Assembly (NCBI GenBank): GCA_964505555.1 | Contig: CAZDIO010000026.1 | Coordinates: 2,924 to 66,923, forward strand | Direction of reading: 5' to 3' | Origin: an uncultured Bdellovibrionales bacterium | Lineage (GTDB): Bacteria; Bdellovibrionota_C; UBA2361; SZUA-149; CAZDIO01 | Length of the DNA stretch: 64,000 bases | In this document: positions 17,726-64,000 of the stretch, piece by piece | How positions within the stretch are numbered: position 1 is the first letter of the stretch | How the letters are laid out: every line of letters starts with the position of its first letter | The notes under the pieces: generated by a model | What the model saw: the letters and a program-made list of their open reading frames with translations, nothing else | Databases searched by the model: none | What the model was told of the DNA's origin: nothing | Made by a program: the position numbers and the translations under genes

Positions 17726-17745
17726 AATGTCTTCCTCCTAGCTTT

Positions 17746-18332: not shown

Positions 18333-18350
18333 TTCCCCCTGCAAAACAAC

Positions 18351-22087: not shown

Positions 22088-22100
22088 AACCTAATCCCAG

Positions 22101-23189: not shown

Positions 23190-23192
23190 ATC

Positions 23193-24491: not shown

Positions 24492-24601
24492 AAACAGTTC
24501 TCAAAGCTTTTCACGAAATAACATTTAGCTGAGGTTTGCTCTGTAGAAACTCGGCCTACAAAGCATCCGATACGACGAAGTTGATATGAGGTAGTCGTCG
24601 C

Positions 24602-25027: not shown

Positions 25028-25112
25028 AAAACTATTAGGGGCACCGTATCACTCTGGATTAGCTTTGAGATGTATTCTTTTTTTGGTTCAATTCCCCTTC
25101 TCATCATTTCTC

Positions 25113-26191: not shown

Positions 26192-26311
26192 AGATTAATA
26201 CGTTCAGTTCATCTCTTTTGTGACATCGGCGTTGTTCATATCGTCACATTTTTCCTTCCGAGTGCGTATTACTTCTAGAGAATAGACTCTCCTGGCTACG
26301 AGTTTCATCAG

Positions 26312-27622: not shown

Positions 27623-27624
27623 TT

Positions 27625-28842: not shown

Positions 28843-28845
28843 TCG

Positions 28846-31800: not shown

Positions 31801-32097
31801 CTCGATCTCGCTTTTGATGAGCGAAAAAAACGAGGAGAGATGAATACACTCGGGCATCTTAAAGACGCGATCATTCATGGAGCGGTAAAGAGAATACGGC
31901 CAAAATTAATGACCGTAATGGCCGCGTTCATGGGTCTTATTCCAATCATGTTCTCGATGTCCACGGGTAACGACGTGATGAAACGCATCGCCGCGCCAAT
32001 GATTGGAGGGCTCTTTACAAGCTTCCTTTTGGAACTTCTTGTATACCCAGCCCTATATTTTGAATGGAAAAAACGGTGCCTTATCAAGCCTACGTGA
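28846..32097 (+). CDS. heavy-metal efflux RND transporter, CusA family (second system)
   Basis: 1083 aa. 'IPDLSDTQVIV' and 'LVDGAIVEVEN' are present. The 'EFMPPLNEGSLLYMP' Met-rich segment is typical of Cu/Ag-type RND pumps. Confidence 0.9.
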   Translation: MVCRLIEFSAKNKLFIITMTLALLVGAWWSFKNIPLDAIPDLSDTQVIVYSRWDRSPDIIEDQVTYPIVTSLLGTPGIKAVRGFSDFGYSYVYVIFEDGTNLYWARSRTLEYLSKILPRLPQGVRTEIGPDATSLGWVYQYALVDDSGSLDLAELRSIQDWQLKFHIQSVPGVAEVASVGGFVKQYQVNVDPNKLSHYGIRMPLLIEAIRSGNNDTGGRVVEFSGREYMVRGRGYAKSIEDIENIVVSNEHETGTPILVKNIATVELGPDIRRGVTDLNGMGDTAGGIVIMRQGENVVNVIDRVKEKLEQIRPSLPNGVKIVTTYDRSDLVHRALNTLKHELIAEVIIVSIVILIFLWHIPSAIVPILTIPISVFLAFIPMYFMGVTSNIMSLAGIAISIGILVDGAIVEVENAYKRLEEWNTSGRNGDFHEVRLRALKEVAPSVFFSLLVIAVSFIPIFMLVDQEGRLFRPLAISKTLAMTLAALLAVTVDPALRMLFSRMDKFTFKPRWLSGITNAFLVGTYYPEEKHPISKVLFRVYEPVANFVLRHTYLTIIGAILLVLTTIPIFLHLGTEFMPPLNEGSLLYMPTAFPGMSITEAKRLLQVQDKLLMGFPEVQSAYGKAGRAETSTDPAPLSMFETTVVLKPTEEWKKLDTWYSNLPRFIHPLFEWTSPPHESLEELQSRMNDKLRFAGIPNIWTMPIKNRIDMLSTGIRTPIGIKVLGADLKIIQNISEQIEAAIKSIPDTRSVYAERAAEGYYLDFVFNREALARYGVTIDEANMIVNSAVGGENISYTIEGRERYPINVRYLREFRDDVETLKRVLVPTSSGAMQIPLAQLADIKMVQGPSMIRNENGLLAGYVYVDITRKDIGGYIDDAKRVVQEKVALPTGYSLIWSGQYENMERVKERLKVVLPVTLFFIFLLLYLNTRSFVKTSIVLLAVPFSLVGSIWLLYFLGYNISIAVWVGMIALMGLDAETGVFMLLYLDLAFDERKKRGEMNTLGHLKDAIIHGAVKRIRPKLMTVMAAFMGLIPIMFSMSTGNDVMKRIAAPMIGGLFTSFLLELLVYPALYFEWKKRCLIKPT

Positions 32098-44229: not shown

Positions 44230-45669
44230 CTACTTCAGGAGACGGTAGCACGGTCCGCAAACACGTCCTTTGGTCGGCTCTTTCGGGTGAAGGTATGGCA
44301 GCCGCTTGGTCTGGGTGCACGCAACGCATTCCGCGATCGGCGCGCTCAAGTTCCGAGAACAAGTGCTGCAAATCCTCTTTCCGTCGTGAGTGCGGGGAAG
44401 ACGCTTCTTCTTTCCGCACGCAGCGCAATCACCGACCGGAGGAGCGAGAGCATCCCTGCACGTCTTGCATACTCTGCCTTTTTTCCGATCCTTCGGGTGA
44501 TTAAACGGCAGTGGTTTATTCTCACCACATTCACCGCATCTCCCTTTTGGACCGGGGTTGAGCTTCTTGTAGCAAGTTACGCACACGCTCCGGCGCTTGC
44601 TCTTGGGCTTGTGCTTGTCTTTCGGGTGCTTGTGCCGCAGTCGCTTTTTCTTGCGACATACGGAGCATCTACCCAAAGGAGGCTTCAGCCGCTGATAGCA
44701 AGCCCTGCAAATCCTGCCCTTGCTCTTGTCCTGAGGATGGTAGAGCGGAAGCAGCTTCTCCTCGCTGCACTCAGCACACTGACCGAAAGGAGTGGTAAGA
44801 AGCATGTAGCAGTCCTGACATACTCTTCCCTTTTCCTCATGGTCAGGCTCAGCTGGCGGTGAGACGCCGTTTGCTTGTGCTCTCTCCACCTCTGTCGCGT
44901 TGTCGGGATGATTGTAACTGAGCCGCTTCTCTTCGCCGCACTCAGCACATTCACCCACTGGCGGCGCAAGCCGCCAGTAGCAGGCGTGACAGACCTTTCC
45001 CAGGCTCGGTTCTTGAGGGTGATGGTTCGTTAGCTGCTTCTCGAAACCACACCCTGGACAGATGCCAACCGCATATGCGAGGTCCTTGTAGCATCCCTCG
45101 CAAACGCGGCCCAAGTCCGCGTCATCCGGATGGTTGTAGGGGAGGAGCTTCTCTTCCTTGCAAGCAGCGCATCGAGCTTTGGGAGCCCGAAGATGCTTGT
45201 TACACACCCTGCAAATCCTTCCCTTCGCTGGGTCGGTGGGGTGTATATTCGGAAGTCGCCTTGTCTTGCCGCACCCCGTGCACCTGCCAACAGGCGTTAT
45301 TAGCAGCTCGTAACAGTCTTTACATATCCTCCCCTTCTTTTCATCTTCAGGATGAAAATTAGGAAGGGATTTTTCCTTGCCGCACTCAGCACATTCGCCC
45401 ACCGGCGGCGCAAGCCGGGCGTAACACGCGTTACAGACTCTTCCCTTGCCTTCCTCAAGCGGATGATTGTACGGAAGCGACCTTGTCTTGCCGCATTCGC
45501 CGCATTCTGCCACCGGAGACCCCAGTTTGGTCCGACAGGAATCGCAGACCCTTCCCAATTCGGGGTCTTGGGGATGGAAGTAAGGGAGTTCTCGCTTGTT
45601 GCCACAAGCAACACAGATTCCAATCGGGATGGCGGCCTTCAAGGCGCCGCCGGAATTGTTAGCGCACAT
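44230..45669 (-). CDS. 479-aa basic protein made of 12 tandem ~37-aa CxxC-N19-21-CxxC (zinc-ribbon-like) repeats
   Basis: Repeat consensus: C-x-x-C-G-x-x-K-x-L-P-x-x-H-P-x-D-x-x-K-G-R-V-C-x-x-C-Y-x-x-L-x-P-P-V-G-x. I counted 12 units by eye. Unit 7 has a 20-aa insertion and unit 11 is shortened. Confidence 0.6.
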   Translation of the reverse strand: MCANNSGGALKAAIPIGICVACGNKRELPYFHPQDPELGRVCDSCRTKLGSPVAECGECGKTRSLPYNHPLEEGKGRVCNACYARLAPPVGECAECGKEKSLPNFHPEDEKKGRICKDCYELLITPVGRCTGCGKTRRLPNIHPTDPAKGRICRVCNKHLRAPKARCAACKEEKLLPYNHPDDADLGRVCEGCYKDLAYAVGICPGCGFEKQLTNHHPQEPSLGKVCHACYWRLAPPVGECAECGEEKRLSYNHPDNATEVERAQANGVSPPAEPDHEEKGRVCQDCYMLLTTPFGQCAECSEEKLLPLYHPQDKSKGRICRACYQRLKPPLGRCSVCRKKKRLRHKHPKDKHKPKSKRRSVCVTCYKKLNPGPKGRCGECGENKPLPFNHPKDRKKGRVCKTCRDALAPPVGDCAACGKKKRLPRTHDGKRICSTCSRNLSAPIAECVACTQTKRLPYLHPKEPTKGRVCGPCYRLLK

Positions 45670-49742: not shown

Positions 49743-52700
49743 TTAGGCGGACGAAAGCGCTTCCCTTACTGCTTCGAGGTTTCGGCAACGGGTTTTCTCA
49801 ATATCAAGAAGATCCACCGGCCCGACATGGAATTTACGAAGCAACTCAGAAACCTGAGCAGCTTCTTTCAATTCTATTTCGTCACGTTTTGCCGACGCCT
49901 TAGCATCACCATCGAAGCGTGCGTTGGTAAACGCAACTAACGCTGGATTGCGCTTCTTTAGATTTGAACTAAAGAGTTTTGCCCGATAATATTCAACTCC
50001 ATCAATTAAATCTCTGATAGCGTCAGATCCAACTTGAATGCCACCTGAATACTTGCACTGCACAAGAATCAGCTCTTTAAGATTGATAGCGATGAGATCA
50101 ACCCCCATGTCCCCGGCCAATGGAGTCAGAACAATGGAATATCCCTGCCTGGCAAAAAGGGTCGCTATAAGCGCCTCGAACTGATGGCCAGAGAATCCTC
50201 TTGTAGAATCGACCGAATTGAATCGAGCAACAGGTGCTGTGCTAATCTTTGTAGGTGGCTCGTCACCGAAGGAATCGATAATCTCTTGTTCAGATACCAC
50301 ACCACGGTTGGAAGGAACCAGAAAATCTCGCGCAACTTTTTTCTTCTCTGAAAGAAGACTGTCTAATTTCTCATCAAATGATTTGAACTGCTTGAGCGGA
50401 TCAACGGATATGGGATAGTAAACGATGACGTCTTTCCGTTGCCCTATTCGATACGCTCGATCTGTTGCCTGTGCTTCCTTTGCAGGGTTCCACCATCGGC
50501 TATAATGAATAACATGATTCGCCGCTGTAATAGTTAAACCAACACCAGCCACCCGAGGAGAAAGAACAATCAAGTTAAAACCCTTTTTGCTGGAAAAATC
50601 CGCAATGGTCTGTTTTCTATTCTCACGTTGAACAAAACGTTCGGAATCAGCAGCCCCATTGATAACATCAATTTTAAGATTGAAATAAGCACCTAAAACT
50701 TCCGCTAGAATCACTTGCATAGCCTGAAAGTCGGCGAAGATAAGAGCTTTCTCTCCGGCCTTCTTAACTTCCTCAATGATAGAGATCACCGACTGAAGTT
50801 TATTCGAGGCTTTAATGTAAACATTAGGGTCATCAATGGGCTTCAAGCCTTCCAGCAAACTAGGATGCATATAGAGTTTTTTTAAAGAGGAAAGAAGACT
50901 CAAGTGATGCGCTTGATCCTTCGACTCTCGGAGATGTTTGATCAACTGAACATGGAATTCTCTTTGCTCAACTGTCAAAGGACTTTCGATACGCTTCTCA
51001 ATTTTGCGGGGCAAGTCAGTAAGCTCTTGCTCCTTTTCTCGTCGAAGAATGAAAGCGTCCTGATGGTCATATCGAAGACACCCACGAAGTTCACTTGTAA
51101 GCGCTCCTCGCTGTTCTTCGGTGAGTTCATCCAAATCCCTCTCATATCGGGTCGAGAAGTCCTTACTTGATCCCAAAAGCGTACCCGGTTGAAAGTAATC
51201 TACTAAGTTCCAAAGATCGAGGAGACGATTTTCGACTGGGGTTCCTGTGGATACTATTTTGAAAACTGCTTTTAATGCCTTTAGCGCATCTGACCTCGCA
51301 TTTTGTTCCTTAAACTCCTGCGCCTCATCTGTTACGATTATCGACCACGGAATACGACCAAACGAATGCTGATAATTCTTGATAGTGTCATAGTTGGTGA
51401 TAATGATCCGATGCTCACGAAGTGCAGCCACATCTAACCTCGGAACACCCAACTGAATCTCACGCCCCTTCTCAGCAGGGATTAGGAATCGCCGAAGCCC
51501 TTTATCATGAAGAACTAAGAGAGGTTCAAATACATCATTCGCAAAGTATCTCTCAGCTTCCTCTTTCCAATTCTCCAGTAATATCAAAGGAGCAACGATT
51601 AAGATCGGCTCCCAGGGGCCCGTAGACGCACCTAGAGCATCGCTGTATCCATCTTCTACGCACCAAGCTAGAAAAGTCAGGATCTGCAGAGTCTTTCCAA
51701 GACCCATATCGTCGGCTAAAAGACAACCACGACGAATATCTCTGTTCCGAAAGAGATTTTGCAGCCAACATATGCCACGTTTTTGATGTTCCTTGAGAAT
51801 CAGAGGCTGTTCGATTCCAATCTGATCCCGAAAGGTTTTCCGTAAAGCACGAGGGAGGACAACTTCTCCCGAGTAGGTAGGCAATGTTTCAACTAGGCCA
51901 CCCTCCTGATATTCGGAAGCCTCTTCATTCGCATAAATTAGAAGATACTTCGACTTTTTTAACGAAGTTGTTGGAGATGCCTTTCCTGAGAATGGCATGA
52001 TAATTCCAGTGACAACTTGCTGAATCTCATCGAGACCGCCAGTTAAGACATCATCGATAAGTATCTTGTGTCCTTTGTAGTCTATGGTTGATTTTCCTTC
52101 CTTGACCGCTTCTTGGACTACGTGGACAAGTTCAACGATTTCCTGCTCTTTGGTCAGAGGGATGATGCGCTCCTCATCGTTCACTTCAATTCTTATCCCA
52201 CAGGAAACGTTAGCGTCACCTAAGCTCGCAGAATCTCCCCAGTCTCGACTTAAACGGCTCAAGAATATTCTTGCCCGTAAAGGAGGATCGCCGATACCTC
52301 GAACTCTTGGGCCAAAGACACTTAGATCCACAACATTTCGATCTGTGCCGTCACTTAGACAGCTCATTACATCAGCGAGTATTCTTTCTTTGGTCTCTCC
52401 ACCAACGTGACGTACTTTTTGAATATCACGAAGGACAGATATTATCTTTTCAGAAAGGACAACCCTCAACCGCCTGTTATTAGGCAAGCTAAGGTCATAA
52501 ACCGGTTGAACTTCACTAAATTGAAGAAAGGCGCGTTCCATTTCACGGTCTGGGACTCCCTCAAATCGTGGAACGAGAGAGAGAAGTCCCGCAGTATCAA
52601 AACTTACGTCTATCTGCACCTTTTGCGGAAGCATTACCTCTTCCGACTGAAGGTAATTGTCTAGCTCAATTCCATTGAGAATAGATTTTATCTCAGCCAA

Positions 52701-53237
52701 TACAACCAGCGCAGCTTCTTTTGTTTTCTCCAGGGCGGTTAGTGAATTAAATCGATCCAGTGACTCAAGTAATTCAAAAGTCTTGGGTGCTAAACGAAAG
52801 TTTGAGCGAGACCGCCGTACAAACGCACCATATCGCTCTACGAAAACCTGTTGCCTGCCTAGAAAGAAACGATAGGCAAATGAAAAATCTTTCGATCCAA
52901 TAAATCCTTCTGCAGACAAGGATATTGAGAATGGTGCCCAAGAAACGAGGTTCTCAAAAAACTCTATGCCTTCCGCTTCAAGTTTAGGTAACGACTGATA
53001 TGGAATAACTATACGCAAGTCTTCCGCTTGAACTAATTCTTGTTCAATAAGTTGCTCGATTAGCTGTCCTAACGCTTTTCCTTTGCTATTAATGCCAGCA
53101 AGACCTTCCCATGTTTCTCGTTTCGATAACGGTTTCGGTGCAGTGCTCTCTCGCCACTCTATCGCAAGGAAAGAACGATGGGCTTTGAGCAATACATCGT
53201 TACTCAGTAATTCAATATCTAAACCAATCTCACTCAT
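49743..53237 (-). CDS. zorD: ZorD-like SNF2-family helicase with C-terminal Mrr-like restriction endonuclease domain
   Basis: SNF2 motifs 'LLADDMGLGKTLQ', 'IIVTDEAQEFK', 'STGTPVENRLLDLWNLVDYFQPG' and 'QATDRAYRIGQ'. The C-terminal 'FEALIATLFARQGYSIVLTPLAGDMGVDLIAIN...LVQCKY' is Mrr_cat-like. About 480 aa at the N-terminus are unassigned. Confidence 0.8.
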   Translation of the reverse strand: MSEIGLDIELLSNDVLLKAHRSFLAIEWRESTAPKPLSKRETWEGLAGINSKGKALGQLIEQLIEQELVQAEDLRIVIPYQSLPKLEAEGIEFFENLVSWAPFSISLSAEGFIGSKDFSFAYRFFLGRQQVFVERYGAFVRRSRSNFRLAPKTFELLESLDRFNSLTALEKTKEAALVVLAEIKSILNGIELDNYLQSEEVMLPQKVQIDVSFDTAGLLSLVPRFEGVPDREMERAFLQFSEVQPVYDLSLPNNRRLRVVLSEKIISVLRDIQKVRHVGGETKERILADVMSCLSDGTDRNVVDLSVFGPRVRGIGDPPLRARIFLSRLSRDWGDSASLGDANVSCGIRIEVNDEERIIPLTKEQEIVELVHVVQEAVKEGKSTIDYKGHKILIDDVLTGGLDEIQQVVTGIIMPFSGKASPTTSLKKSKYLLIYANEEASEYQEGGLVETLPTYSGEVVLPRALRKTFRDQIGIEQPLILKEHQKRGICWLQNLFRNRDIRRGCLLADDMGLGKTLQILTFLAWCVEDGYSDALGASTGPWEPILIVAPLILLENWKEEAERYFANDVFEPLLVLHDKGLRRFLIPAEKGREIQLGVPRLDVAALREHRIIITNYDTIKNYQHSFGRIPWSIIVTDEAQEFKEQNARSDALKALKAVFKIVSTGTPVENRLLDLWNLVDYFQPGTLLGSSKDFSTRYERDLDELTEEQRGALTSELRGCLRYDHQDAFILRREKEQELTDLPRKIEKRIESPLTVEQREFHVQLIKHLRESKDQAHHLSLLSSLKKLYMHPSLLEGLKPIDDPNVYIKASNKLQSVISIIEEVKKAGEKALIFADFQAMQVILAEVLGAYFNLKIDVINGAADSERFVQRENRKQTIADFSSKKGFNLIVLSPRVAGVGLTITAANHVIHYSRWWNPAKEAQATDRAYRIGQRKDVIVYYPISVDPLKQFKSFDEKLDSLLSEKKKVARDFLVPSNRGVVSEQEIIDSFGDEPPTKISTAPVARFNSVDSTRGFSGHQFEALIATLFARQGYSIVLTPLAGDMGVDLIAINLKELILVQCKYSGGIQVGSDAIRDLIDGVEYYRAKLFSSNLKKRNPALVAFTNARFDGDAKASAKRDEIELKEAAQVSELLRKFHVGPVDLLDIEKTRCRNLEAVREALSSA

Positions 53238-54575
53238 TTATGCTCTCCTGATACCGTTTCTTGAGAGAATTGTACGAGTGTTACTTTTCCAGTCCCGGAC
53301 TGAACGAGTTATACGCTCCAACGCTTTTTCGGCGTTCTTCAAGGTATGAATACTCTCTCCTGCTTTCCAAAAGTTCTGCACGATTGAATCAAACTCACGC
53401 CGTCGATACATGTAACAGGCGTTTCCAATTTGATTAAACTCCACAACCACCAGTTCACCAAAATCAAGGATAAAACAACATGTATCATTATTGTCTTGGA
53501 GCTCACCATATGAACGTCCTCGTTCTTCAAGGTCCTTCAGTTTTACAGCGTGTTTCTTTCTATCGGAGGGACACAGTAACGCTCGAGATCGTTTCACAAC
53601 TGGCACATATTCAAGCCAAAACGATTTTCGATTATGCCGATCTTCTCGATCTTTAATCAAAAGCTCAAAAAAGAAATTGATATCTTCACGAGAGAGCCAT
53701 TGTATGAATCGTTGCGTTGCCTCGTCTCTGACACCTGTCCATGGATTAATACGAGGGTCTCCGAAGCCCTCCTTCTTCATGCAAAAGTCAATAATCAAAC
53801 CTTGCAGTGCTTCGTTCCTATTTACTTCGGGATCGAGAATCAGGCTTGCAAGTGTCTCTTTGAGCGTCTCCTGCTCGATGAGAGGACTCGAAAGAACTGA
53901 AAAAAGAAAGACATTCCGTTGTGGGTCGTTGAGCTTTCCAAAATCAGAAGTATAGGATTCAACACAATGTCGAGCCGCTAACCGCAAAAAAGGACTTTCT
54001 TCGAGAATTCCGATCTCTTTTGCGAATGACTCAATACTTTTCGATGATCCTCGGATATGGACTCCGAGTCTCGAAGGAGCTTGTTGACCTAGTAAAGCAT
54101 CGAGGTAGCCAAGCCATTTTCTTATTCTCGGATCGCTCTTCTCAAAATGAGAAAGACGATTAAAAAGAAATGTCTCAAGTTCTCGATTAAGACATAATTG
54201 AGTAAAGTTTGCATGATACGAGTTGAGAAGGGCTTTTATTGCCTGACCTCCAACGTAAAACGAACCGTCCAAAATATTTCCAATGAATCTTTCATGACCA
54301 ACAACTTCAGAAATCCAGCAAAGACATCTTATTTCGCGTGGAGCAAACGACACTTGATTGCCACTGATATATTCTGACCAACGCTCGTGCGCTTTGTCAG
54401 TCAACGATGGAGGTAAATTATCTGAGACAACTGCATCCAGAGATTGCACTGCTTCATCGAGAACTCGATTTTTAAAAACATCTGTTACAAATGGCAAGTG
54501 ATCATCCCCGTCTCGCAGCATGGTAATACTTTGAAGACGTTCAATGGCTCTATGGATATGGAGAGATAACATCAT
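53238..54575 (-). CDS. zorC: ZorC-like protein (EH-signature-domain position)
   Basis: 445 aa, abutting zorD (stop and start adjacent). It occupies the ZorC slot between a MotB-like and an SNF2 gene. The C-terminal 'FWLEYVP...CCFILDFGELVVVEFNQIGNACYMY' is reminiscent of the EH_Signature domain. This is assigned by context and not verified. Confidence 0.55.
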   Translation of the reverse strand: MMLSLHIHRAIERLQSITMLRDGDDHLPFVTDVFKNRVLDEAVQSLDAVVSDNLPPSLTDKAHERWSEYISGNQVSFAPREIRCLCWISEVVGHERFIGNILDGSFYVGGQAIKALLNSYHANFTQLCLNRELETFLFNRLSHFEKSDPRIRKWLGYLDALLGQQAPSRLGVHIRGSSKSIESFAKEIGILEESPFLRLAARHCVESYTSDFGKLNDPQRNVFLFSVLSSPLIEQETLKETLASLILDPEVNRNEALQGLIIDFCMKKEGFGDPRINPWTGVRDEATQRFIQWLSREDINFFFELLIKDREDRHNRKSFWLEYVPVVKRSRALLCPSDRKKHAVKLKDLEERGRSYGELQDNNDTCCFILDFGELVVVEFNQIGNACYMYRRREFDSIVQNFWKAGESIHTLKNAEKALERITRSVRDWKSNTRTILSRNGIRRA

Positions 54576-54587
54576 CCCTATATTCCT

Positions 54588-55268
54588 TCAGTCGAGCTCA
54601 ACGGATTGAACGGCATCTTGAATTTTCTTTTCTTCAAGGCTCTTTACTCGGATCTTAAATTCAACCTTTCGGCACCTTTCTTTTTCAGGTTCAAGTGAAG
54701 TTAATTCTGCTTTACATTCGCGCTCCCCGCGACCACTGGCTGAAGACAAATCAAGAAAACAACTATGATTATTTCCGGCGTTCCGAAGCATCGACTTCAT
54801 TACGACTAACGACCGATCTTGACTCAGTCTAAGATTAAAATATGGGTCATTCGGGTTCTGGTCTGGGTCAGTATGCCCTTCTATCACAATGGAGCTAAGT
54901 GCATCCTTAAGCTCATCACTGCACACGATAGACAATAGTTTAGGAGTTAATTCTCCAAGAAACTGTTCTCCAATTTCTTTAAGAATCGCTCGACTTTTGT
55001 CGAACTGAATCCATTTTTCCGGCACGATGACTATTAATGTGTACGGATCTTTTGCATCTTCGATGACGCTGACGCCTTCAAATGCATCACCCTGAAAAAC
55101 ATTCTTGAGTGCTTCTTCGATCGTTTGCTTAACAGTTTTACGATTTGATTCAGCAGCGTGTTGATCGTTACGGATGTAATTAACCAAGAGCAGGACGAAG
55201 ATGACCATCAAGCTTGTCATCATGTCTGTGAGAGAACTATTAAATGCAGAATGGCTAGTGTCACTCAT
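54588..55268 (-). CDS. zorB: ZorB-like MotB/OmpA-family stator subunit
   Basis: The N-terminal TM 'LTDMMTSLMVIFVLLLV' carries the conserved MotB-type Asp. The OmpA-like C-domain is 'VIEGHTDPD...NLRLSQDRSLVV'. It overlaps the zorA stop by 1 nt. Confidence 0.75.
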   Translation of the reverse strand: MSDTSHSAFNSSLTDMMTSLMVIFVLLLVNYIRNDQHAAESNRKTVKQTIEEALKNVFQGDAFEGVSVIEDAKDPYTLIVIVPEKWIQFDKSRAILKEIGEQFLGELTPKLLSIVCSDELKDALSSIVIEGHTDPDQNPNDPYFNLRLSQDRSLVVMKSMLRNAGNNHSCFLDLSSASGRGERECKAELTSLEPEKERCRKVEFKIRVKSLEEKKIQDAVQSVELD

Positions 55269-57190
55269 TAGTTAATACTTTTTGCTTTGGATGACGCCTC
55301 CATAAGATCGTCCAAACTGTCGTTCAACTGCTGCACTGTACCGCCGAGCTTTGAGGTAGCATTTCCGAGAAAGTTATCGAATTGCGCAAGATTGCTCTCC
55401 AATCCGGATTTAACCTTTGAAGTATAATTTTCGAGACTTGTCGCAATCTGACTCAAGAGCGCACCTATCGACTTATCCAATTCCGCGAAGGTTCTCTGAT
55501 ATTGTGTTAAGAGATCACTTTGTTGTGTAATAACAGCAGCGAGTTGTTGAAAATTTGACCGGGCAAGGTCCGCTACAGTGTTGGTGTTATCTTGGAGCTT
55601 ATTGGCCTGTTCTACAGTTGTATTGAGGGTCTGTATGCCCGAGTGTAACGAGTTAGCTCCGTCGTCCATTTTCGTGAGCGTTGAACTCCCTCGTTGAACA
55701 GCGTCTTGAAAGAGCGTCAAGGCTTCGTTGAGAGAATTTTTAGCGCTCTCTATAACTGAAGCGTTCCGGGCTTGCTGCTCCAACAACTCTGCTAGTCTTG
55801 CGGTAGTCTGTGCTGAATGCGTTGAAGTAGTTTCAACAACGTTAGAAACCGTCGATTTGAGAGAGTCCGCAGAGAGATTGATGGACTGTTGTGCCTGCTC
55901 CATCAGCCCTCTGACCAAGGTCGATAATTCTATGGAACGTTTGCTATTCTCTTCAAGTTGCACTCGCGATGACTGCTCTAGGCGCTCTAAAACATTAGTC
56001 ACTGCCTGAGTAAATGATTCGGAAGACGAAGAGGTTGTTTCACGCAACTTTGCGAGAGTGCCTTCCATGACGTTAGCAAGCCGAGACAGATTTTCGCTTC
56101 CAGCTTCAGAATTCTTTGTCATTAATGTTTCGATGTTCTTAATGAGACCATCAAGTGCTTCTTGAGATCGCTCTCCTTGACGATTCATAGATTCAAGCGT
56201 GCTTGTTGTGGAGGATAGTGTCGATGCTAGCGCTTTAAATTCTGAATCCGTCGAGCCCATCAATGTGTTTTTGAATTCTCCGATTATTTTCCCAATCGTG
56301 TCGGTAACAGATTCACTCTTCTGTTTTGTCAGCTCTTCTAAAGCGGTAGCGATTCGAGCAACCAGAGGATCCATTCCTTCCCTGAAGCTTTCTTTCAGAC
56401 GCCCTGAGAGATCGGTGCCAAATTGTTGGAACAAAACTGCTTGCTGTCCAATGTCTCGACGAATGTCGCGAAGCAAATGTTCCGCTGGCATTCGAGCGAA
56501 CCGTCTATCGATTGCACCGATAAAAGCGCGGTAACTTCGATTTAGTGTTTTGGTTATTCTTTTCTCAATCCCGGTAAAAACTGTGGCAAGAATTAAAGCA
56601 GCAATAGAAGAAATGAATTTACCTGATAGACTATAGACAAGTTCCTTTATGCCGGTGATTTCACCATTAACCTCCTTAATATGAGAAAGTCCCATTAATA
56701 TTGCTATGAACGTAAGAAGCAGTCCAAGACTTGTTAGAATCCCTGGAAAAGCAACGTAAAAAGCAGTGCTCACCCTTGCTTCAATGAGTCCTGCTTCATC
56801 AAAATACTCAGAGGCTTGATGTGTGTTAAAAACTTTTGTGTTCTGATCGGCATCAGTCTCGAACAGCAGAGTTTCCTCGAACTCGCTCCACTGCTCTGAA
56901 AGCACGTTATCCTTCGTCAATAATTCTCGAATCTGTTCGATGCCAGTTCCATCCAGCGGCTTATTTCGTGGCGGGATATTCTCGATTTCCCGTCGGAGTT
57001 TCCTGAATTTGACTATCAGGGGACGAGATTCAAAGAAGAACTTAAGGGCGATGCCTATGGTAACGATTGCCAAAACGGCACAAGCAATCCATAAGAATAG
57101 TGGCGCGGTGATTTCGTTTACGTGACATGGCGGATCAAAAAAATTGATTGGAGAATCTTGAATCGCCAAGAGACAGTCTTTTGCTTCCAT
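55268..57190 (-). CDS. zorA: ZorA-like MotA/ExbB-family channel protein with a long coiled-coil tail
   Basis: TM helices at the N-terminus and at 'AFPGILTSLGLLLTFIAILMGL' / 'FISSIAALILATVFTGI'. About 400 aa of heptad-like, S/T/Q/L-rich helical tail follow. Confidence 0.7.
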   Translation of the reverse strand: MEAKDCLLAIQDSPINFFDPPCHVNEITAPLFLWIACAVLAIVTIGIALKFFFESRPLIVKFRKLRREIENIPPRNKPLDGTGIEQIRELLTKDNVLSEQWSEFEETLLFETDADQNTKVFNTHQASEYFDEAGLIEARVSTAFYVAFPGILTSLGLLLTFIAILMGLSHIKEVNGEITGIKELVYSLSGKFISSIAALILATVFTGIEKRITKTLNRSYRAFIGAIDRRFARMPAEHLLRDIRRDIGQQAVLFQQFGTDLSGRLKESFREGMDPLVARIATALEELTKQKSESVTDTIGKIIGEFKNTLMGSTDSEFKALASTLSSTTSTLESMNRQGERSQEALDGLIKNIETLMTKNSEAGSENLSRLANVMEGTLAKLRETTSSSSESFTQAVTNVLERLEQSSRVQLEENSKRSIELSTLVRGLMEQAQQSINLSADSLKSTVSNVVETTSTHSAQTTARLAELLEQQARNASVIESAKNSLNEALTLFQDAVQRGSSTLTKMDDGANSLHSGIQTLNTTVEQANKLQDNTNTVADLARSNFQQLAAVITQQSDLLTQYQRTFAELDKSIGALLSQIATSLENYTSKVKSGLESNLAQFDNFLGNATSKLGGTVQQLNDSLDDLMEASSKAKSIN

Positions 57191-57195
57191 CGTTA

Positions 57196-57519
57196 TTATT
57201 TCCCACTCCTGCCCACAGATTTTTCAAGATTCTGCAGTGCTTCTAAAAATTCCCTAAAATGTTTCTTTTCAAACGAAAAATAGGTTCGAACGCCCTGTGT
57301 TTCTGCTTTAAGTAATCCAACATCTACTAGTTTCTTCAGGTGCCGTGAAACAGTTGCTTGACTAAGAGGCAACTTTTCCACTAACTCAGTACCTATCAAA
57401 GTCGCATGCCGTGCAAGCAATCTAAGAATCGCAACTCGTGCCGGATGACCGAGAGCGTTACACCACAGCGAGAGCTTTTGATCCTCGTTGGAAAAGTTCT
57501 GTGCCTTACGCGCAACCAT
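57196..57519 (-). CDS. ArsR/SmtB-family winged-HTH regulator, first gene of the Zorya operon
   Basis: 'LGHPARVAILRLL...ELVEKLPLSQATVSRHLKKLVDVGLL'. A 5-nt gap separates it from zorA. Confidence 0.75.
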   Translation of the reverse strand: MVARKAQNFSNEDQKLSLWCNALGHPARVAILRLLARHATLIGTELVEKLPLSQATVSRHLKKLVDVGLLKAETQGVRTYFSFEKKHFREFLEALQNLEKSVGRSGK

Positions 57520-57612: not shown

Positions 57613-57891
57613 ATGTTAGCTTATTTTCTCCAGATCCGGATCTGGAAAATGATCCACATACGGATCGTATTTGACCGCACCTTAGCTTGCATGAAACTAC
57701 GCAAGCGACTAGCAAAGCGATTGAAGCAATTGAAAGGAGACTCGAAACAAGCTGAGTTCGCCAGGAGGATCGGAATAGGTCAGGCTTCTTTGAATCGCAT
57801 TCTCCAAGCCGAGCAAAGCGTAAGTTTGGACCTTTTAGAGACCATCTGTAATAGTCTTCGGATTGATGTCACGGAGCTGCTTCGCGAATAG
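57613..57891 (+). CDS. XRE-family HTH regulator
   Basis: 'KQAEFARRIGIGQASLNRILQAEQSVSLDLLETICNSL'. The likely start is the ATG at 57691. It is divergent from the ArsR-zor operon. Confidence 0.65.
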   Translation: MLAYFLQIRIWKMIHIRIVFDRTLACMKLRKRLAKRLKQLKGDSKQAEFARRIGIGQASLNRILQAEQSVSLDLLETICNSLRIDVTELLRE

Positions 57892-58067
57892 ATGTTCATA
57901 ATTTCCGGACTATTGGTTTAAGCTTGCCACTATTTTTACAGCTTCCGTCTTTACCCGTCAGATACGGGCTGTCCCTTATATCGGATAGTTCAAGCCTGAA
58001 ATGACGAAACAAGCACTTTAGTGTATTTCTACAAAGAATACGGGATAGTGGATCAATTATCTTTCTA

Positions 58068-58625
58068 ATGGCAACAGAAGATTTTTACTTATTAAGCGTG
58101 CTGGAGGAAATTCTTCCGAAAGACAAACAAGCCGGAATAGATCCATCTATCATAATTGAGCACGTGCACATAAGTCGATCACTCAGGTTTGAGGGCGAAG
58201 GTCTACAAGAAAATTTCCGGTTTTCTGGCATCGGCGAATATATGCTTCACCCCACATCTTGGGAGCCGCGCTATAAATCGATAGATTGCGATTTCGTATT
58301 TGTTTGCGCCGCAGATCGTCCCGAGAAAAGCGTTGAGTTAAAATCCAATAACGGACTTTTTGGAGTCTTAACAACATTCAAAGGAGACGATTCGCCAATT
58401 CTAGAAGGTGAAGTCGTAGTTAGTAATGAAATTTATGATCGGCTTTCCCAATACTTGATCGACTTCGATTATGGCGGTCGAAATGAAATTTATTTTTCAA
58501 TTTCAGTTCGTCGCGCTAACCATCTCGACAACTATTTGGCAATATCTAGTTTTTGTTGCAAATATGGAATTGCACCGAAAAAACAAGATAAAAATGGGGA
58601 AGGCAGTATTGAAGATCTACTGTGA
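58068..58625 (+). CDS. hypothetical protein A of an uncharacterised three-gene cassette
   Basis: 185-aa ORF with no motif I recognise. The next ORF follows after 34 nt. Confidence 0.4.
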   Translation: MATEDFYLLSVLEEILPKDKQAGIDPSIIIEHVHISRSLRFEGEGLQENFRFSGIGEYMLHPTSWEPRYKSIDCDFVFVCAADRPEKSVELKSNNGLFGVLTTFKGDDSPILEGEVVVSNEIYDRLSQYLIDFDYGGRNEIYFSISVRRANHLDNYLAISSFCCKYGIAPKKQDKNGEGSIEDLL

Positions 58626-58659
58626 ACAAACTACCATCCAACTTACCGTGCGCGAATAA

Positions 58660-61209
58660 TTGGGCGGAATGGAATTTATGAAAGGTTTTCCTTCGGCTCT
58701 TTACAACTTCAAAGCTTACTGGTGGGGGCGCGCACGCCTTGAAACAATTTTTCAGAAAGCACATTTGAGGAGACTACGCTTAAAAGATTCAATTGCGGAC
58801 CGCTCTTTGTCGGTACGAATCTTGGTTCAGATAGGCTGGGCAATTATTCCGACTCTTATTGTTGCAGCTTCACTTGTAGCGTTGTGTGAGTTGGGAGAAG
58901 CATTCCTAAGAGAACACTTACATAATCTTTTTAACGGGGTTGGTAGCGCTCCTGCAAAGGAGTTCATTCTCTCCTTTGTAGGATTAGTCGCTCAAATAGC
59001 AGGAATATTTCTTGGCCTTTATTATGCTGCTCTAGGTGTTGTTGTTAGCACGGCATACGCTAAACTTCCTAACCAACTGAGATGGCTATTGCTGAAAGAA
59101 CGAATTGGAAATCTCTATATCTTTCTGACTACCGTCTTAGCAGCCATGGCATTGATAACACTTTCGTTGTGGGGCTTTGGTTATCAGACAGGATATTTGA
59201 ATCTGTTAGTAATTTGTCTATTGAGCGTATCATCTGTTTTGAGCTTTGTTCGATTTGGTCAGCACGTTTTTAACCTATTTGATATCACGAGTGTTTTGGA
59301 GGAGCCTTATAGGATTATTCTTCGTTCCGTTGACCGAGTATCATCAGTAAAACTAAGGGACTACTCTAGCATACAAGAGTTGAGCCGATATCGTGTTAAA
59401 CAAGCACTACAAGCCTTTAATGATGTTATTGTAGTTTCTACAAATTTGGAATTTGATCGAGACCGCCTCATGACGAGGCTTCTTAGATACCTCCTTGCCA
59501 CATTAGCTAATTACGTTGGGAACAAAGGAAAGATCGCAACTGCGTCAAAATGGTTTCCCTCCATCTATCACCATAGAAACTGGCTCACATCTGATTCAAT
59601 ATATATTACAACCTCGTTGTCTACCGGCGCACCTCTTTTCCCTACTGAAGTTCAGGATGTCAATTGGTTCGAAGATGAAATATTACGGCTGAGCAATGCT
59701 GCCCTCAAGTCACTGTTAGACGGCAAAGATGAAGCAGCTTACAAGCACGCTTATAGCGCAATCATGGCAGCAGTAGCTTCTTTGACAGCACGACATACTG
59801 TAATCGAAGCGAATCAGCTGGTCCAAAATACAACTAATACTGTAAGATCCTTTCTAAACGAATTAGCCACCGCTAATTCACTTGATGTTCACCAGTTGAA
59901 GCCTTCCGCACTCAACCAGCTTCTATCTTTACACTGCTACACATATGCACAGTTAGTTGTTGGAATGGGCCATGCGGCAACGGGGCTTACGCTCCAACGT
60001 CTTGAGGACTTAGCAGCTATGTTGATAGCAACTCCCGGTCACCTTGACCGCAAGGTTAATATATTGCCTCGTAGGATCCTTGATGAGTTCTATCGACTGT
60101 CAGACTTGATTAAGTTCGAACGAAGCGTAGAACGGACTGTTATCACAAGCAAATGGTATATTGTTCAGATTTTTGAACTAGCTTTAGTGCGCCATCTCAA
60201 CGAGATAGTTGAGCAGACTTATGAAAGAGTTGCAGCATTCTTTGAACCAGAGTCTTTCCTTTCAGATACCTTCCCGTCAACCCCCGCGATCCCATCTCAT
60301 CTTGAATGCTACAGAGCCATGATCGGGATTGAGGTAATGGAAAAGCTTCTGTTTCAACTCAATAGGTTAAGAGTAGTCTACCGTGATATCCAAGGGCGAC
60401 GTCGCGCTGACGATATTCCGTTTCCTGCAATTGATTTTGATGATTTTAAGAATCGCGTTGCTGCTTTGAAACGCACATTAGTTCTTAGATTAATTACGCA
60501 TGCTACCACAATTGGATACAAGGAACGTCAACCAAGCATTCCTGACTTTTTCGGACAAGCATATTTCTTTGCGGTAGAGGAAGCTCGTCAGTGCCTTGCT
60601 CGTGATGATGAACAACTCTTCACAACATTTTTTGCCAGAGCGTTTTCTCTAGCTTTCATGAGTTACGAAAACGTTTCGCGTGAATTGAAAGGCCACCCCG
60701 ATAACACTCGTGTAATCTTCATGACGGAGAGTCTAGAGGATATAATATGTCTTTCTGGTTTGGCCTTTATCTATGCGGAATTGGTTAACATGAGCTTCTC
60801 TGAGACTGTCATAAAAATTTGGGACAAGTATCTAAACTCCGTCGAGGATCGAGCTTCAGTGATTCGATTCTTGTTAATAACAATTGATTATAGAAAGAAC
60901 GAGTTTAGCTTGAAACCACGATCCGTGATTCGGGGAATGTGGGAACAAGAGCTGGCTTTAGACTTTAGAAAGCGTGGATTGCTCAAAGGCGATTGGATGG
61001 GAATGTACTCTTCCAGTTCGAAAGATGAAAAAGTGCACCAAAGTGCGCTAATTCGAACTCTGAGCCGATCATTTCTGATGATGGGGAATCTGTTGGAAGT
61101 ATTCGTTTCTTTGTACCTATTGAAACAGCCCGAGACTAATGGGATCGAAATTCCTGCATCAGTGGAATCTTTTCAACGCTCCTTACAAAAAGCGGAGAAT
61201 GATGAGTAG
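58660..61209 (+). CDS. hypothetical large membrane protein B (4 N-terminal TM helices plus ~600-aa helical soluble domain)
   Basis: TM helices: 'ILVQIGWAIIPTLIVAASLVAL', 'FILSFVGLVAQIAGIFLGLYYAALGVVV', 'LYIFLTTVLAAMALITLSLWGF', 'LNLLVICLLSVSSVLSFV'. The rest has no recognised catalytic motif. Start at 58660 (TTG), 58669 or 58678. Confidence 0.45.
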   Translation: MGGMEFMKGFPSALYNFKAYWWGRARLETIFQKAHLRRLRLKDSIADRSLSVRILVQIGWAIIPTLIVAASLVALCELGEAFLREHLHNLFNGVGSAPAKEFILSFVGLVAQIAGIFLGLYYAALGVVVSTAYAKLPNQLRWLLLKERIGNLYIFLTTVLAAMALITLSLWGFGYQTGYLNLLVICLLSVSSVLSFVRFGQHVFNLFDITSVLEEPYRIILRSVDRVSSVKLRDYSSIQELSRYRVKQALQAFNDVIVVSTNLEFDRDRLMTRLLRYLLATLANYVGNKGKIATASKWFPSIYHHRNWLTSDSIYITTSLSTGAPLFPTEVQDVNWFEDEILRLSNAALKSLLDGKDEAAYKHAYSAIMAAVASLTARHTVIEANQLVQNTTNTVRSFLNELATANSLDVHQLKPSALNQLLSLHCYTYAQLVVGMGHAATGLTLQRLEDLAAMLIATPGHLDRKVNILPRRILDEFYRLSDLIKFERSVERTVITSKWYIVQIFELALVRHLNEIVEQTYERVAAFFEPESFLSDTFPSTPAIPSHLECYRAMIGIEVMEKLLFQLNRLRVVYRDIQGRRRADDIPFPAIDFDDFKNRVAALKRTLVLRLITHATTIGYKERQPSIPDFFGQAYFFAVEEARQCLARDDEQLFTTFFARAFSLAFMSYENVSRELKGHPDNTRVIFMTESLEDIICLSGLAFIYAELVNMSFSETVIKIWDKYLNSVEDRASVIRFLLITIDYRKNEFSLKPRSVIRGMWEQELALDFRKRGLLKGDWMGMYSSSSKDEKVHQSALIRTLSRSFLMMGNLLEVFVSLYLLKQPETNGIEIPASVESFQRSLQKAENDE

Positions 61210-62140
61210 TACCATTGTAAAGAAACTATTTAGCCTGATTCACAAAAGGCGAAGCATCCGCTTTTCGGATCACCTTGGTATGTACGGACACATGTTTTAT
61301 GAGGACGTTAGTTTGGCTATAATGCCATACGATCGAATCCATTCTGAACCTCGCTATGTTCTCCAACTGACCGAAGGAGACCCTGCAAAAGAAGAGCAGC
61401 TAAGGCTAGCAATTGATCAAGGGTCAAGCTGGAATCTTAAGGAGTCAGTCGAAAATTTCATTAGAGAAACTGCAAAGTCTTTAATCTATCATGGCCGGAC
61501 TTACTACAGCATTAATTACTTTGAAGGAACAGAGAAGCGTTTTGAAATAGTCCGAGTCTGGCCAGATCAGGTACTTTCGATATTCGGAATGCATATACCG
61601 TTGTATGATACTCTTCGTTACTCTCGAGCCAAAAATGGTTGTAAAAAGAGTGAGATTGTTTGCTTCAAACTGCCCCACTCCTGTCGGTCGGCACTAACCC
61701 TGCTTCGAACATTATCTACGATCAACCCTTCGCACCTACCTGAATTCGCAATGAAGCAGTACGATCCTGAAATCACTCTTTCTGAGCGTGTTCCTGTAAG
61801 TTTCGCCGCAATTCGAATGTCGGAAGAGATCCGCCTCGCTAAGCTAACTAAAGACATTGGCTGGAATGGTCGTGGCTTACTTTCGGAGCGAATGACAGAG
61901 CACTATTGGCTTACCCGACAGTTGCGTTTTGAGCGATTTCTCGCTCAACTCAGAGGGACAATCATGAGCAGTTTTAACAATTTACTGGCACAGGTTGATA
62001 AGAAAATAGGATTCTCTTGTCGTCTTAAGCTTGAAGGAATTGCAACTGAAGTAGATGTTGATAGTTCAGAGCAGATCCTCGAGGATGGAAGTGGTCCATT
62101 TTCTCTTGTAATGAAGCCATTTCGGTCTCGGACAGTGTAA
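61139..62140 (+). CDS. hypothetical protein C of the cassette
   Basis: The ORF overlaps the end of protein B. The more likely start is the ATG at 61199 (GGAG upstream, 11-nt overlap with the B stop). No recognised motif. Confidence 0.4.
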   Translation: MGSKFLHQWNLFNAPYKKRRMMSSTIVKKLFSLIHKRRSIRFSDHLGMYGHMFYEDVSLAIMPYDRIHSEPRYVLQLTEGDPAKEEQLRLAIDQGSSWNLKESVENFIRETAKSLIYHGRTYYSINYFEGTEKRFEIVRVWPDQVLSIFGMHIPLYDTLRYSRAKNGCKKSEIVCFKLPHSCRSALTLLRTLSTINPSHLPEFAMKQYDPEITLSERVPVSFAAIRMSEEIRLAKLTKDIGWNGRGLLSERMTEHYWLTRQLRFERFLAQLRGTIMSSFNNLLAQVDKKIGFSCRLKLEGIATEVDVDSSEQILEDGSGPFSLVMKPFRSRTV

Positions 62141-62233: not shown

Positions 62234-62785
62234 TCAGCGAATCAACAGGGGAGCAATTGCATGAAACGAAATCTTACGTTTACCTCCATCTGAAAGGAGA
62301 TAAACGAGTGCAGTCAAAGTCGTTCCCGTCGTTACAATATCATCAACGAGCAGTACTTTCGCTTCATCACGTAAGGGAAATTCATCGATTATCTCCCAGG
62401 AATTTAGGAGATCTTGAAATCCTATCGCTCCGCCAGTTGCAAGTACGCTTTGTGAATGTTTGCAAATTGATTCACTAAGATCCATAGAAATATTCATCGC
62501 TTCAACGAGGTTATGTGTGTATTCTCGCGCAAAAGGGAATCGCGATGGTGGACTAATTGCACAATCAAACCCTAAAGCAAGAATTTCTTCCATCAGTCGG
62601 CTAGATAACGAATGGCGAAGCTTGTCATACTCATCCGAAAGTATCCCTGCAGTGAACCCTAGTCGAGCCGCTTGCAGGTACTGCAATCCGATCAAATCGG
62701 GTGGTTCGTTCTTGTAAATAGCCAAATAGTTGAATAGGATCTCTCGGCTAAACCCAAGAAATTTTATCTCAAATGTTTCAAACAT
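62234..62785 (-). CDS. stand-alone phosphoribosyltransferase-domain protein (ComF-like type I PRTase)
   Basis: The PRPP-binding loop 'KVLLVDDIVTTGTTL' lies near the C-terminus. No N-terminal zinc finger. Confidence 0.7.
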   Translation of the reverse strand: MFETFEIKFLGFSREILFNYLAIYKNEPPDLIGLQYLQAARLGFTAGILSDEYDKLRHSLSSRLMEEILALGFDCAISPPSRFPFAREYTHNLVEAMNISMDLSESICKHSQSVLATGGAIGFQDLLNSWEIIDEFPLRDEAKVLLVDDIVTTGTTLTALVYLLSDGGKRKISFHAIAPLLIR

Positions 62786-62923: not shown

Positions 62924-63451
62924 ATGGTTACGCTTTCCGGAGTATGGACATTTATCGTGATTCTCCTGGCGTTAGCGCTGGGCATTGTGTTGATCTATCT
63001 CGGATTTGCTGCCATAGGCTTTGCCTTGTCGTTGCCATTTCTTATCGCAGGCGCAATTCTTGGACTACTCGCAGCGGCCATCGGAATCCTTCTAGGGATT
63101 TTTAAAGAGATCGTTTTTGTCGTAGGCCAGAGACTACGTCTCATATTTGTATTCAAAGCGGCTTCACATAGCCAAAGTAGGAATAAGAAGACGGGACATC
63201 AGACGTACCAAGAAGACAACCGACAAGATAAACAGCATGTTCAACGCTCGCAACAAAGTTCCTTTGACCCCTACAATATTCTCCAAGTCGCCCCAGGCGC
63301 AAACTTGGTTGCAATTAAGACTGCGTATCACCAGCAGATGACAAGATATCATCCCGATAAAGTCGCACACCTTGGTGAGGAGCTTCAAGCTTTAGCTGAA
63401 GAAAAGGCAAAGATGATTCAAAGAGCTTACTCAGCACTAAGTAGTCATTGA
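62924..63451 (+). CDS. membrane-anchored J-domain (DnaJ-like) protein
   Basis: Two N-terminal TM helices. The C-terminal 'DPYNILQVAPGANLVAIKTAYHQQMTRYHPDK' carries the HPD motif. Confidence 0.7.
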   Translation: MVTLSGVWTFIVILLALALGIVLIYLGFAAIGFALSLPFLIAGAILGLLAAAIGILLGIFKEIVFVVGQRLRLIFVFKAASHSQSRNKKTGHQTYQEDNRQDKQHVQRSQQSSFDPYNILQVAPGANLVAIKTAYHQQMTRYHPDKVAHLGEELQALAEEKAKMIQRAYSALSSH

Positions 63452-64000
63452 TTGGGTTTCTGATTCGACGGATCTTCATTCAGCACTTGATCTTTGAAAC
63501 TCTGATCGGTGTTCTCTGCCCGAGCCTTCACTTTGGCAGTGGAAGACCAAATTCTCTCCGAAGCATTTTGCCGTCCATATCGGCCAAGCAAACTATTAAC
63601 ACCACTCACCGCTACAGCACCCGTCGCTATAAGCGCTGCTTGAGCGGTAGCACTTCCCATGGGTTGCCCATTGTCATTTCGCCGTGTAGCATAATTCATG
63701 GATGTAGCGCGGGCCGTGTTTACAAATGACTCACCAAAATTGGCAGTTCCGCGCGCAAACGCCCGACCAAGTTGAAGTCCTCCTCCAAATCCGAGAGCCG
63801 CTGCTGCTATTCCTCCAGAAGACATTTGCGGCGCCCCTGAAGAGAGTCCGCCAATAATCTTTGGAAGATTCCAGACGAGCACGGCATAGAGCGCAGAAGC
63901 AAGACCGACTAACATGAACGCGTTAACGTCATCTGACCCGTGCTGGATAATTACATCCGCCCAAATAGTTGCAATGTCCAGTCCAGCTCCGATAAGCAAG
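63445..64000 (-). CDS. C-terminal part of a Gly-rich integral membrane protein (TrbL/VirB6-like?), 5'-truncated by the window edge
   Basis: The frame is open to the window end. It has TM segments, and the 'GGLSSGAPQMSSGGIAAAALGFGGGLQ' tail is reminiscent of VirB6/TrbL C-termini. The family is not verifiable here. Confidence 0.3.
   Translation of the reverse strand, partial: LLIGAGLDIATIWADVIIQHGSDDVNAFMLVGLASALYAVLVWNLPKIIGGLSSGAPQMSSGGIAAAALGFGGGLQLGRAFARGTANFGESFVNTARATSMNYATRRNDNGQPMGSATAQAALIATGAVAVSGVNSLLGRYGRQNASERIWSSTAKVKARAENTDQSFKDQVLNEDPSNQKPNQ

Follow-up and report, generated by a model that had tools for sequence, protein, structure and literature searches.

An overlapping two-gene operon next to a type I Zorya operon as a candidate membrane-anchored defence module of bacteria

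A stretch of 64,000 nucleotides (nt) from an uncultured Bdellovibrionales bacterium (assembly GCA_964505555.1, contig CAZDIO010000026.1, positions 2,924 to 66,923; hereafter the window) contains four open reading frames (ORFs) on the same strand, next to a divergently oriented Zorya operon. They encode an XRE-type regulator and three proteins, here named A, B and C (Table 1). The initial annotation of the window had described them as a regulator-fronted cassette of three genes without known family and had proposed this cassette as a new defence system. All four ORFs were found where they had been placed. The conserved unit is the overlapping two-gene operon B-C, not the set of XRE, A, B and C. 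The tight spacing that had been pointed out held for A and B (43 nt) and for B and C (an 8-nt overlap of the start of the 312-amino-acid (aa) form of C with the stop of B), but not for XRE and A, which are 176 nt apart.

Loci with homologues of B and C were gathered by exact-protein look-ups, three scans of species-representative genomes and searches of plasmids. Clade-specific alignments were used for the scans, the deep alignments A7 and A8 being too diverse. This yielded 94 non-redundant loci, 74 of which had a full-length B; 69 of these had at least 900 nt of DNA downstream. C was located directly downstream of B and on the same strand in all 69 informative loci. A start/stop overlap of 4 or 8 nt was available in 46 of the 69, and B and C are usually translationally coupled. 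Co-occurrence and co-orientation, as in an obligate two-component system, were thus found without exception, and in one protein of 1,145 aa (P0048), B (residues 3-791) and C (residues 832-1144) are naturally fused. P0048 may be a genuine Rosetta-stone protein, or else an artefact of a frameshift or of assembly at the usual 4-nt overlap. Clustering of the neighbours in the 94 loci revealed no third conserved partner. Among 5.8 billion proteins, no homologues of A were detected except in identical copies of the window locus, and tblastn with A against the other loci searched (L001-L015) and plasmids gave no match. A was consequently rejected as a conserved component. Because C always accompanied B, A was confined to identical copies and a third partner was lacking, the unit was delimited as B-C. 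Of the expected co-occurrence of all three genes elsewhere, only that of B with C was observed.

Table 1. Features of the B-C locus in the window (positions in the window; strand as read 5' to 3').
Feature	Position	Strand	Remarks
XRE ORF	57613-57891	+	Cro/C1-type helix-turn-helix, Pfam match
Gene A	58068-58625	+	185 aa ORF
Gene B	58669-61209	+	846 aa, gene caller, ATG start
Gene B, longest ORF	58660-61209	+	849 aa, TTG start
Membrane anchor of B, four transmembrane helices	58831-59250	+	hydropathy
Gene C	61202-62140	+	312 aa, gene caller
Gene C, longest ORF	61139-62140	+	333 aa
Candidate operator palindrome, 24 bp	57626-57649	.	TTCTCCAGATCC/GGATCTGGAAAA
Second inverted repeat	57633-57666	.	overlaps the 24-bp palindrome, ArsR/XRE divergent region
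ArsR-zorA-zorB-zorC-zorD type I Zorya operon	49743-57519	-	context, outside the module

A profile built from four B sequences detected 1,534 cluster representatives (50% identity) at E ≤ 1e-3 in a HMMER search. Of these, 957 had E ≤ 1e-30. Nearly all members of the family were 800-900 aa long and aligned from end to end. The impression of a tiny family, given by a word-indexed search that had found only three B homologues, was shown by this exhaustive search to be an artefact of low sensitivity. The window copies of A, B and C had no match in Pfam-A (2025), PADLOC-DB v2 (2023), NCBIfam r20 (June 2026), PHROGs or the PDB sequences (2026); for PADLOC-DB v2.0.0, with its PDC and HEC candidates included, this applied at E ≤ 0.1. 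The NCBIfam and PHROGs scans covered these window copies, and the other two model libraries were also searched with homologues. In PADLOC, 28 B and 27 C homologues gave just two isolated matches (E ~0.003), each by a single member. In Pfam, no family was matched by more than one member among 9 B and 11 C homologues, even at E ≤ 10. That A, B and C could not be matched to a known family in the initial annotation was borne out by the scans with hidden Markov models and against the PDB. All database names of B and C homologues were 'hypothetical' or 'uncharacterized' (e.g., UniProt A0A385U3N3 and A0A385TZ15), and no name or description of either family was found in the libraries and literature available. 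B and C are unrelated to any described system. The biology proposed for them below, that of a two-gene immune module tied to defence islands and restriction-modification operons, is familiar.

B spans the inner membrane with four helices. Its hydrophobic segments comprise residues 55-73, 99-117, 149-167 and 176-194 (846-aa numbering). The original description of B, four N-terminal transmembrane helices plus a large helical domain, agreed with hydropathy for the former and with AlphaFold for the latter. The mean number of lysine and arginine residues among 116 family members was 6.6 in the N-terminal 30 residues and 2.6, 3.7 and 0.6 in loops 1, 2 and 3, respectively. This pattern predicts an N-in/C-in topology, in which the helical domain of approximately 650 aa would be cytoplasmic. 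Within the second transmembrane helix lies the motif that is best conserved in the family, A-[QG]-I-[AG]-G-[IV]-[FL]-[LI]-G-L-Y, which is of the GxxxG helix-packing type. In the form A-x-I-x-G-x-F-x-G-L-Y, the motif was invariant in alignments A2, A3 and A5, its residues L117 and Y118 were at least 90% conserved in the 116 sequences, and it served as a search pattern. Invariant in all 116 sequences were Y150, S293, W295, W333, E484, W496, D626, G629, W718 and F812 (846-aa numbering), among which no recognised catalytic signature was seen.

AlphaFold2 models of B and C were built from alignments of four sequences. In the model of B, the part following the transmembrane helices was all-helical. 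The model was of mediocre quality, with a mean predicted local distance difference test (pLDDT) score of 65.5 and scores of 75-94 in the C-terminal third. Foldseek comparison of this model with the PDB returned generic solenoid, toroid, HEAT and tetratricopeptide repeat (TPR) matches (best E 1.3e-2, TM-score ≤0.32). A B profile of 9 sequences had no match in the PDB, and a profile of 116 sequences had a weak match to the TPR of SRP72 (3e-4). The cytoplasmic domain is thus predicted to be all-alpha and solenoid- or TPR-like. C would be a soluble alpha/beta partner of B, as judged from its sequence, with neither a signal peptide nor a transmembrane segment. Its near-universal residues are D35, P42, G220-W221, R251, N259 and G296 (312-aa numbering). 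The model of C was unusable (pLDDT 37.9), which made its Foldseek result meaningless, and the C profile had no match in the PDB.

The B-C pair was patchily distributed across phyla. Hosts included Gamma-, Beta- and Alphaproteobacteria, Firmicutes, Actinobacteria, Acidobacteria, Chloroflexi, Bacteroidota, Verrucomicrobia, Chlamydiae, Omnitrophota, Latescibacteria, Binatia, Poribacteria and many lineages of Patescibacteria, the candidate phyla radiation (CPR). GC content ranged from 34 to 69% across the first 51 non-redundant loci. B-C was found on a conjugative plasmid of Burkholderia glumae (NZ_CP021077, 142013-145551), between copies of the insertion sequences (IS) IS66 and IS21 and adjoining VapBC, as well as on Paenibacillus plasmids; one setting adjoined trb/virB genes of a type IV secretion system (T4SS). 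A phage origin of B-C was tried and rejected, as no homologues of B or C were found in the phage collections (IMG/VR, GenBank phages), a result that is neutral with regard to a role in defence. B was fragmented in about 11 of the 94 loci (L009, L014, L090, L092, L095-L097, L099 and L102-L104). Frameshifts or stops had split or truncated it, in several cases in Poribacteria, which suggests that B is frequently pseudogenised. The fragmented copies fit with a costly, dispensable gene.

Apart from this recurrence, the neighbourhoods of B-C bore no relation to each other: the most recurrent neighbours in the 94 loci were the type I restriction-modification genes hsdM (14), hsdR (13) and hsdS (12, at a median distance of 97 nt). 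Type I genes were present within 10 kb of B-C in 16 of the 94 loci; for a random gene, we estimate this proportion at approximately 1% or less, a value that does not come from a matched control. In at least 11 loci, B-C lay within an hsd operon or directly against it, in the same orientation and at varied insertion points. The gene orders were M-S-[BC]-R (L063, L065, L089, L098), M-[BC]-S-R (L073, L087, L096), M-S-R-YgjP-[BC] (L031, L046) and R-M/S-[BC] (L010, L058). The identities of HsdS and HsdR were confirmed, and in L098 the stop of hsdS and the start of B share 4 nt. Other loci had, immediately upstream or nearby, genes for GmrSD_N plus HNH, HNH, ResIII/SNF2 plus a TnsA-like nuclease, or a ResIII helicase; further ones had an SNF2 helicase with a large N6-methylase, or Mrr and HNH nearby. 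Among the 252 nearest neighbours in the first 51 loci, the leading Pfam families were ResIII (9), SWI2_SNF2 (7), DEAD (7), Resolvase/Recombinase (6), HSDR_N (5), Phage_integrase (4) and DNA methylases. The top PADLOC matches of neighbours were type I restriction endonucleases, specificity subunits and type II methyltransferases. Preferential location beside known defence genes, one element in the operational definition of an anti-phage defence system, applies to B-C, with the size of the enrichment depending on the estimated background.

Two of the hsd operons with B-C (L065 7429-9317, L098 8098-9992) had a further ORF, of 140 aa, that separates hsdM from hsdS. In these operons, the longest ORF called 'hsdS' matched HI0073, an MNT-type nucleotidyltransferase, at its N-terminus (8.8e-16). 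A HEPN/MNT-like toxin-antitoxin pair therefore appears to share the hsd operon with B-C.

The co-inheritance of B and C, their patchy spread, their carriage on mobile elements, the decay of B in some genomes and the repeated, independent insertion into restriction operons, which in combination are the usual signature of a defence module, led us to hypothesize that B-C is an undescribed, membrane-anchored two-gene defence module against phages or other invading DNA. We consider the chances of this hypothesis to be evenly balanced. The proposal of a new defence system was thereby supported for the B-C pair, for which co-inheritance and restriction-modification neighbours speak, and not for XRE and A. 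Several points weigh against the hypothesis. A defence role for all family members is deduced from sequences and gene context. The association with defence genes was judged against a background of approximately 1%, which is our own estimate rather than a matched control. By annotation that is incomplete, approximately 80% of the loci had no restriction gene, and some surroundings resembled housekeeping regions (cysS and def in L003, uvrA in L072 and L075). No recognisable catalytic, nucleotide-binding or pore-forming motif was found in B or C. Lastly, the window copy is divergent. Its B was a singleton in clustering at 32% identity and, among the 51 columns with at least 85% conservation, departed from the consensus at 8 (e.g., FDP to FDI, E475 to Y). 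Its C departed at 2 of 21 columns, a 91%-conserved E being replaced by S and a 92%-conserved Q being deleted. Both ORFs are intact; the copy may work differently, depend on A, or be decaying.

If B-C is a defence module, its architecture would fit the following mechanism. B and C would form a complex tethered to the membrane, with the alpha-solenoid of B serving as scaffold and sensor that holds C. The trigger could be membrane events during DNA injection, or an anti-restriction protein of the phage, and the complex would switch its state upon this infection cue. In one version of the output, the conserved, glycine-rich transmembrane bundle of B would compromise the membrane and cause abortive infection, as the early suggestion of an abortive-infection effector had it. 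In the other, C would be released into the cytoplasm to act there. The effector step is a guess, since neither protein has a telling motif, the model of C could not be used and the transmembrane region of B was modelled with low confidence. The full picture, in which B-C is a widespread membrane-tethered immune complex from Proteobacteria to the ultra-small CPR bacteria, with a four-helix/solenoid B holding a C of new fold, acting as a second line behind restriction enzymes, sensing DNA entry at the membrane or phage anti-restriction factors and triggering membrane failure or the release of C, is put forward tentatively and is rather doubtful as a whole.

Known systems with a similar layout were compared with B-C. 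Kiwa consists of KwaA, a membrane protein with four transmembrane helices, and KwaB, a DUF4868 protein of about 310 aa, and resides in defence islands. B-C shares its gene order, in which a soluble partner of approximately 310 aa is encoded after a four-helix membrane protein. In contrast to KwaA, B has a cytoplasmic solenoid of 650 aa. Kiwa was rejected, as PADLOC yielded no KwaA or KwaB match for 28 B and 27 C homologues and Pfam no DUF4868 match for 9 B and 11 C homologues. Zorya, too, has a membrane component with a long cytoplasmic helical extension and soluble partners, but it includes an OmpA-like partner, ZorB, which B-C lacks. B is not a ZorA (MotA/ExbB-like) protein: hhalign against the ZorA of the window gave a probability of 0.6%, and no ZorA-D model matched B or C. 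The Juk system was rejected because Pfam would have detected the Cbp3/DUF3944-like JukA. Type II toxin-antitoxin systems pair a small toxin with a small antitoxin that neutralises it, under autoregulation, and the sizes of B and C (~850 and ~320 aa) are atypical for them.

Parallels in gene context are found in type I restriction-modification loci. Abortive-infection effectors are embedded in such loci in PrrC-EcoprrI and in Ronin (RonA-HsdMS), where RonA, of 61 aa, is a membrane-active effector silenced by a protein partner, in a logic of back-up immunity (10.1101/2023.04.06.535777). Like these, B-C can be present as extra same-strand genes within hsd operons. PrrC is a single ATPase-nuclease protein and RonA has 61 aa, whereas B-C is a pair of 850 and 320 aa; there is no relation in sequence or domains, and most B-C loci are without hsd genes. 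A PrrC-type anticodon nuclease, with its ABC-ATPase-like N-domain and C-terminal anticodon-nuclease domain, has only the embedding in hsd operons in common with B-C and was rejected, given that neither B nor C had a Pfam match to an ATPase or any other family; inspection by eye of the consensus of the B and C alignments showed no Walker-type (P-loop) motif. TgvAB is a two-gene type IV restriction system inside the type I operon of the Vibrio cholerae island VPI-2, which also carries a type I Zorya, and TgvAB is active alone (PMC11411939). B-C resembles it as a two-gene module inside type I operons and in the company of Zorya, which is in the island of TgvAB and adjoins B-C in the window. TgvAB is GmrSD-like, with DUF262/DUF1524 nuclease domains that are absent from B and C; B, moreover, is membrane-bound.

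Other explanations were weighed against the same evidence. XRE, A, B and C could form one four-gene system in which A is obligatory. They share a strand, the spacing is short between A and B (43 nt) and between B and C (-8 nt), A looks genuine, and the divergence of B and C in the window would fit co-adaptation with an extra partner. We nevertheless regard this as unlikely, with homologues of A limited to identical copies of the locus, no third conserved gene in the 94 loci, XRE-like neighbours sporadic and a 176-nt gap between XRE and A. It is also improbable, if slightly less so, that B-C is non-autonomous, a guard or accessory of type I systems of the PrrC/Ronin kind that is triggered by anti-restriction proteins, with the window copy orphaned or re-wired. 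At least 11 loci with B-C embedded at various points of hsd operons, the 4-nt overlap of hsdS and B in L098 and the precedents of PrrC and Ronin (10.1101/2023.04.06.535777) would all agree with such dependence. However, no hsd gene was present within 10 kb in approximately 83% of the loci, including the window (which showed no hsd genes), those on plasmids and most of those in CPR, B-C is also located beside unrelated nucleases, and TgvAB provides a precedent for genes that are embedded in a type I operon and able to act independently (PMC11411939).

The mobile surroundings of B-C, namely integrative and conjugative elements (ICEs), plasmids, T4SS genes, IS elements, serine recombinases, integrases and VapBC, raise the question of a selfish role in stabilisation, in toxin-antitoxin-like addiction, or in competition or exclusion between mobile elements. 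An overlapping two-gene operon with a membrane protein would suit a toxin with its regulator. Yet proteins of ~850 and ~320 aa are far from typical toxin-antitoxin pairs, and specific, repeated insertion into restriction operons would sooner be expected of defence genes. We give this explanation little credence, noting that addiction and abortive infection shade into each other and that the two hypotheses are partly the same. Least convincing to us is a role outside defence, such as membrane scaffolding, envelope maintenance or the regulation of transport, with the neighbours reflecting the general clustering of accessory genes. The lack of defence-type domains, housekeeping flanks in some loci and presence in the reduced genomes of CPR would be compatible with it. 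Patchy spread, pseudogenised copies and mobile carriage speak against it, as do the hsd, nuclease and recombinase genes that head the neighbour list and the lack of a transporter or enzyme signature in either protein.

Should B-C be a defence module, at least 1,500 unannotated clusters (50% identity) from many phyla would be added to the bacterial immune repertoire. Its mechanism would likely be new, as B and C are unlike any known immune component. With its repeated insertion at varied points of type I operons, it would join PrrC, Ronin and TgvAB as a new case for the study of layered or guard immunity. B-C is abundant in Patescibacteria/CPR and in the sponge-symbiont Poribacteria, where few defence systems have been studied. 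Annotation pipelines call B and C 'hypothetical protein' and PADLOC-DB v2 has no model for them, so that a validated B-C model would alter the annotation of many defence islands, ICEs and plasmids.

In the window, XRE and A are probably additions specific to the lineage, with XRE a candidate local repressor. As A had no homologues and XRE-type regulators adjoined B-C only sporadically in other loci (tblastn detected no XRE homologue beside B-C in L001-L015), the cassette of XRE and three genes did not hold as a unit. A is probably a real gene, a lineage-specific ORFan outside the conserved module. That its ORF arose by chance is very unlikely because stop-free runs of at least 185 codons occurred at only 0.01 per 6-kb shuffle and its codon usage was in frame. 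XRE matched HTH_26 (1.9e-9), HTH_3 (1.3e-7) and HTH_31 in Pfam, and HTH_VI and control protein models in PADLOC. Gene callers assigned it 92 or 80 aa, and the first 78 nt of its ORF contain the 24-bp palindrome, which is of the perfect type. This disagreement and the position of the palindrome at the 5' end of the ORF indicate that the true start is probably internal, at 57649 or 57691. The palindrome suggests a candidate operator, one that might be common to the divergent ArsR-Zorya and XRE-A-B-C transcription units. The region between the two units measures 93 bp as annotated, the length first reported, and would measure about 171 bp with a start at 57691. A promoter and terminator scan of the locus showed no enrichment over shuffles, the Rfam scan gave no matches, and megablast of the locus against plasmids had no matches.

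The B-C copy of the window appears to ride on a conjugative element beside Zorya. The divergent neighbour proved to be a genuine and complete ArsR-zorABCD type I Zorya operon, with PADLOC matches to ZorA (2.7e-37), ZorB (1.6e-31), ZorC (5.5e-27) and ZorD (2.5e-218). The proposed setting in ICE cargo gained support from a TraG/VirD4 coupling protein (40207-42051) and a DUF3363 relaxase-like ORF (36040-40191); together with the heavy-metal efflux genes, they make a conjugative element a reasonable setting. The other cargo of the element is metal resistance, and two RND (AcrB/CzcA-like) efflux pumps with outer-membrane factors and a heavy-metal P-type ATPase were encoded at 14936-32097. No tRNA genes were found in the window.

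The phosphoribosyltransferase (PRTase) gene that had been noted beside the cassette is real (62234-62785, minus strand, convergent with C; Pribosyltran 1.4e-6 in Pfam). It encodes a solitary protein of 183 aa with weak PADLOC matches to ShosT (1.6e-6) and PsyrT (1.7e-4). No ShosA/DprA-like partner was found near it, and it may represent what is left of a PRTase-based defence gene, or a variant of one. Between this gene and a possible TrbL-like ORF, an unusual cargo gene (62924-63451, plus strand) encodes 175 aa with an N-terminal hydrophobic segment and a C-terminal J-domain; its DjlA-like NCBIfam match (2.9e-12) was well under the cut-off. Neither the PRTase gene nor this DnaJ-transmembrane gene had a counterpart in L001-L015 by tblastn. 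The following ORF (63445-63999, minus strand), cut by the window end, had weak similarity to the C-terminus of TrbL/VirB6 (E 0.019, single comparison). If this likeness is real, the Zorya/B-C block would be located between conjugation modules. Elsewhere in the window (44230-45669, minus strand), a protein of 479 aa combined double zinc-ribbon domains with a match to a FYVE-type zinc finger (6.1e-18), which is odd on a bacterial conjugative element since FYVE is mainly eukaryotic.

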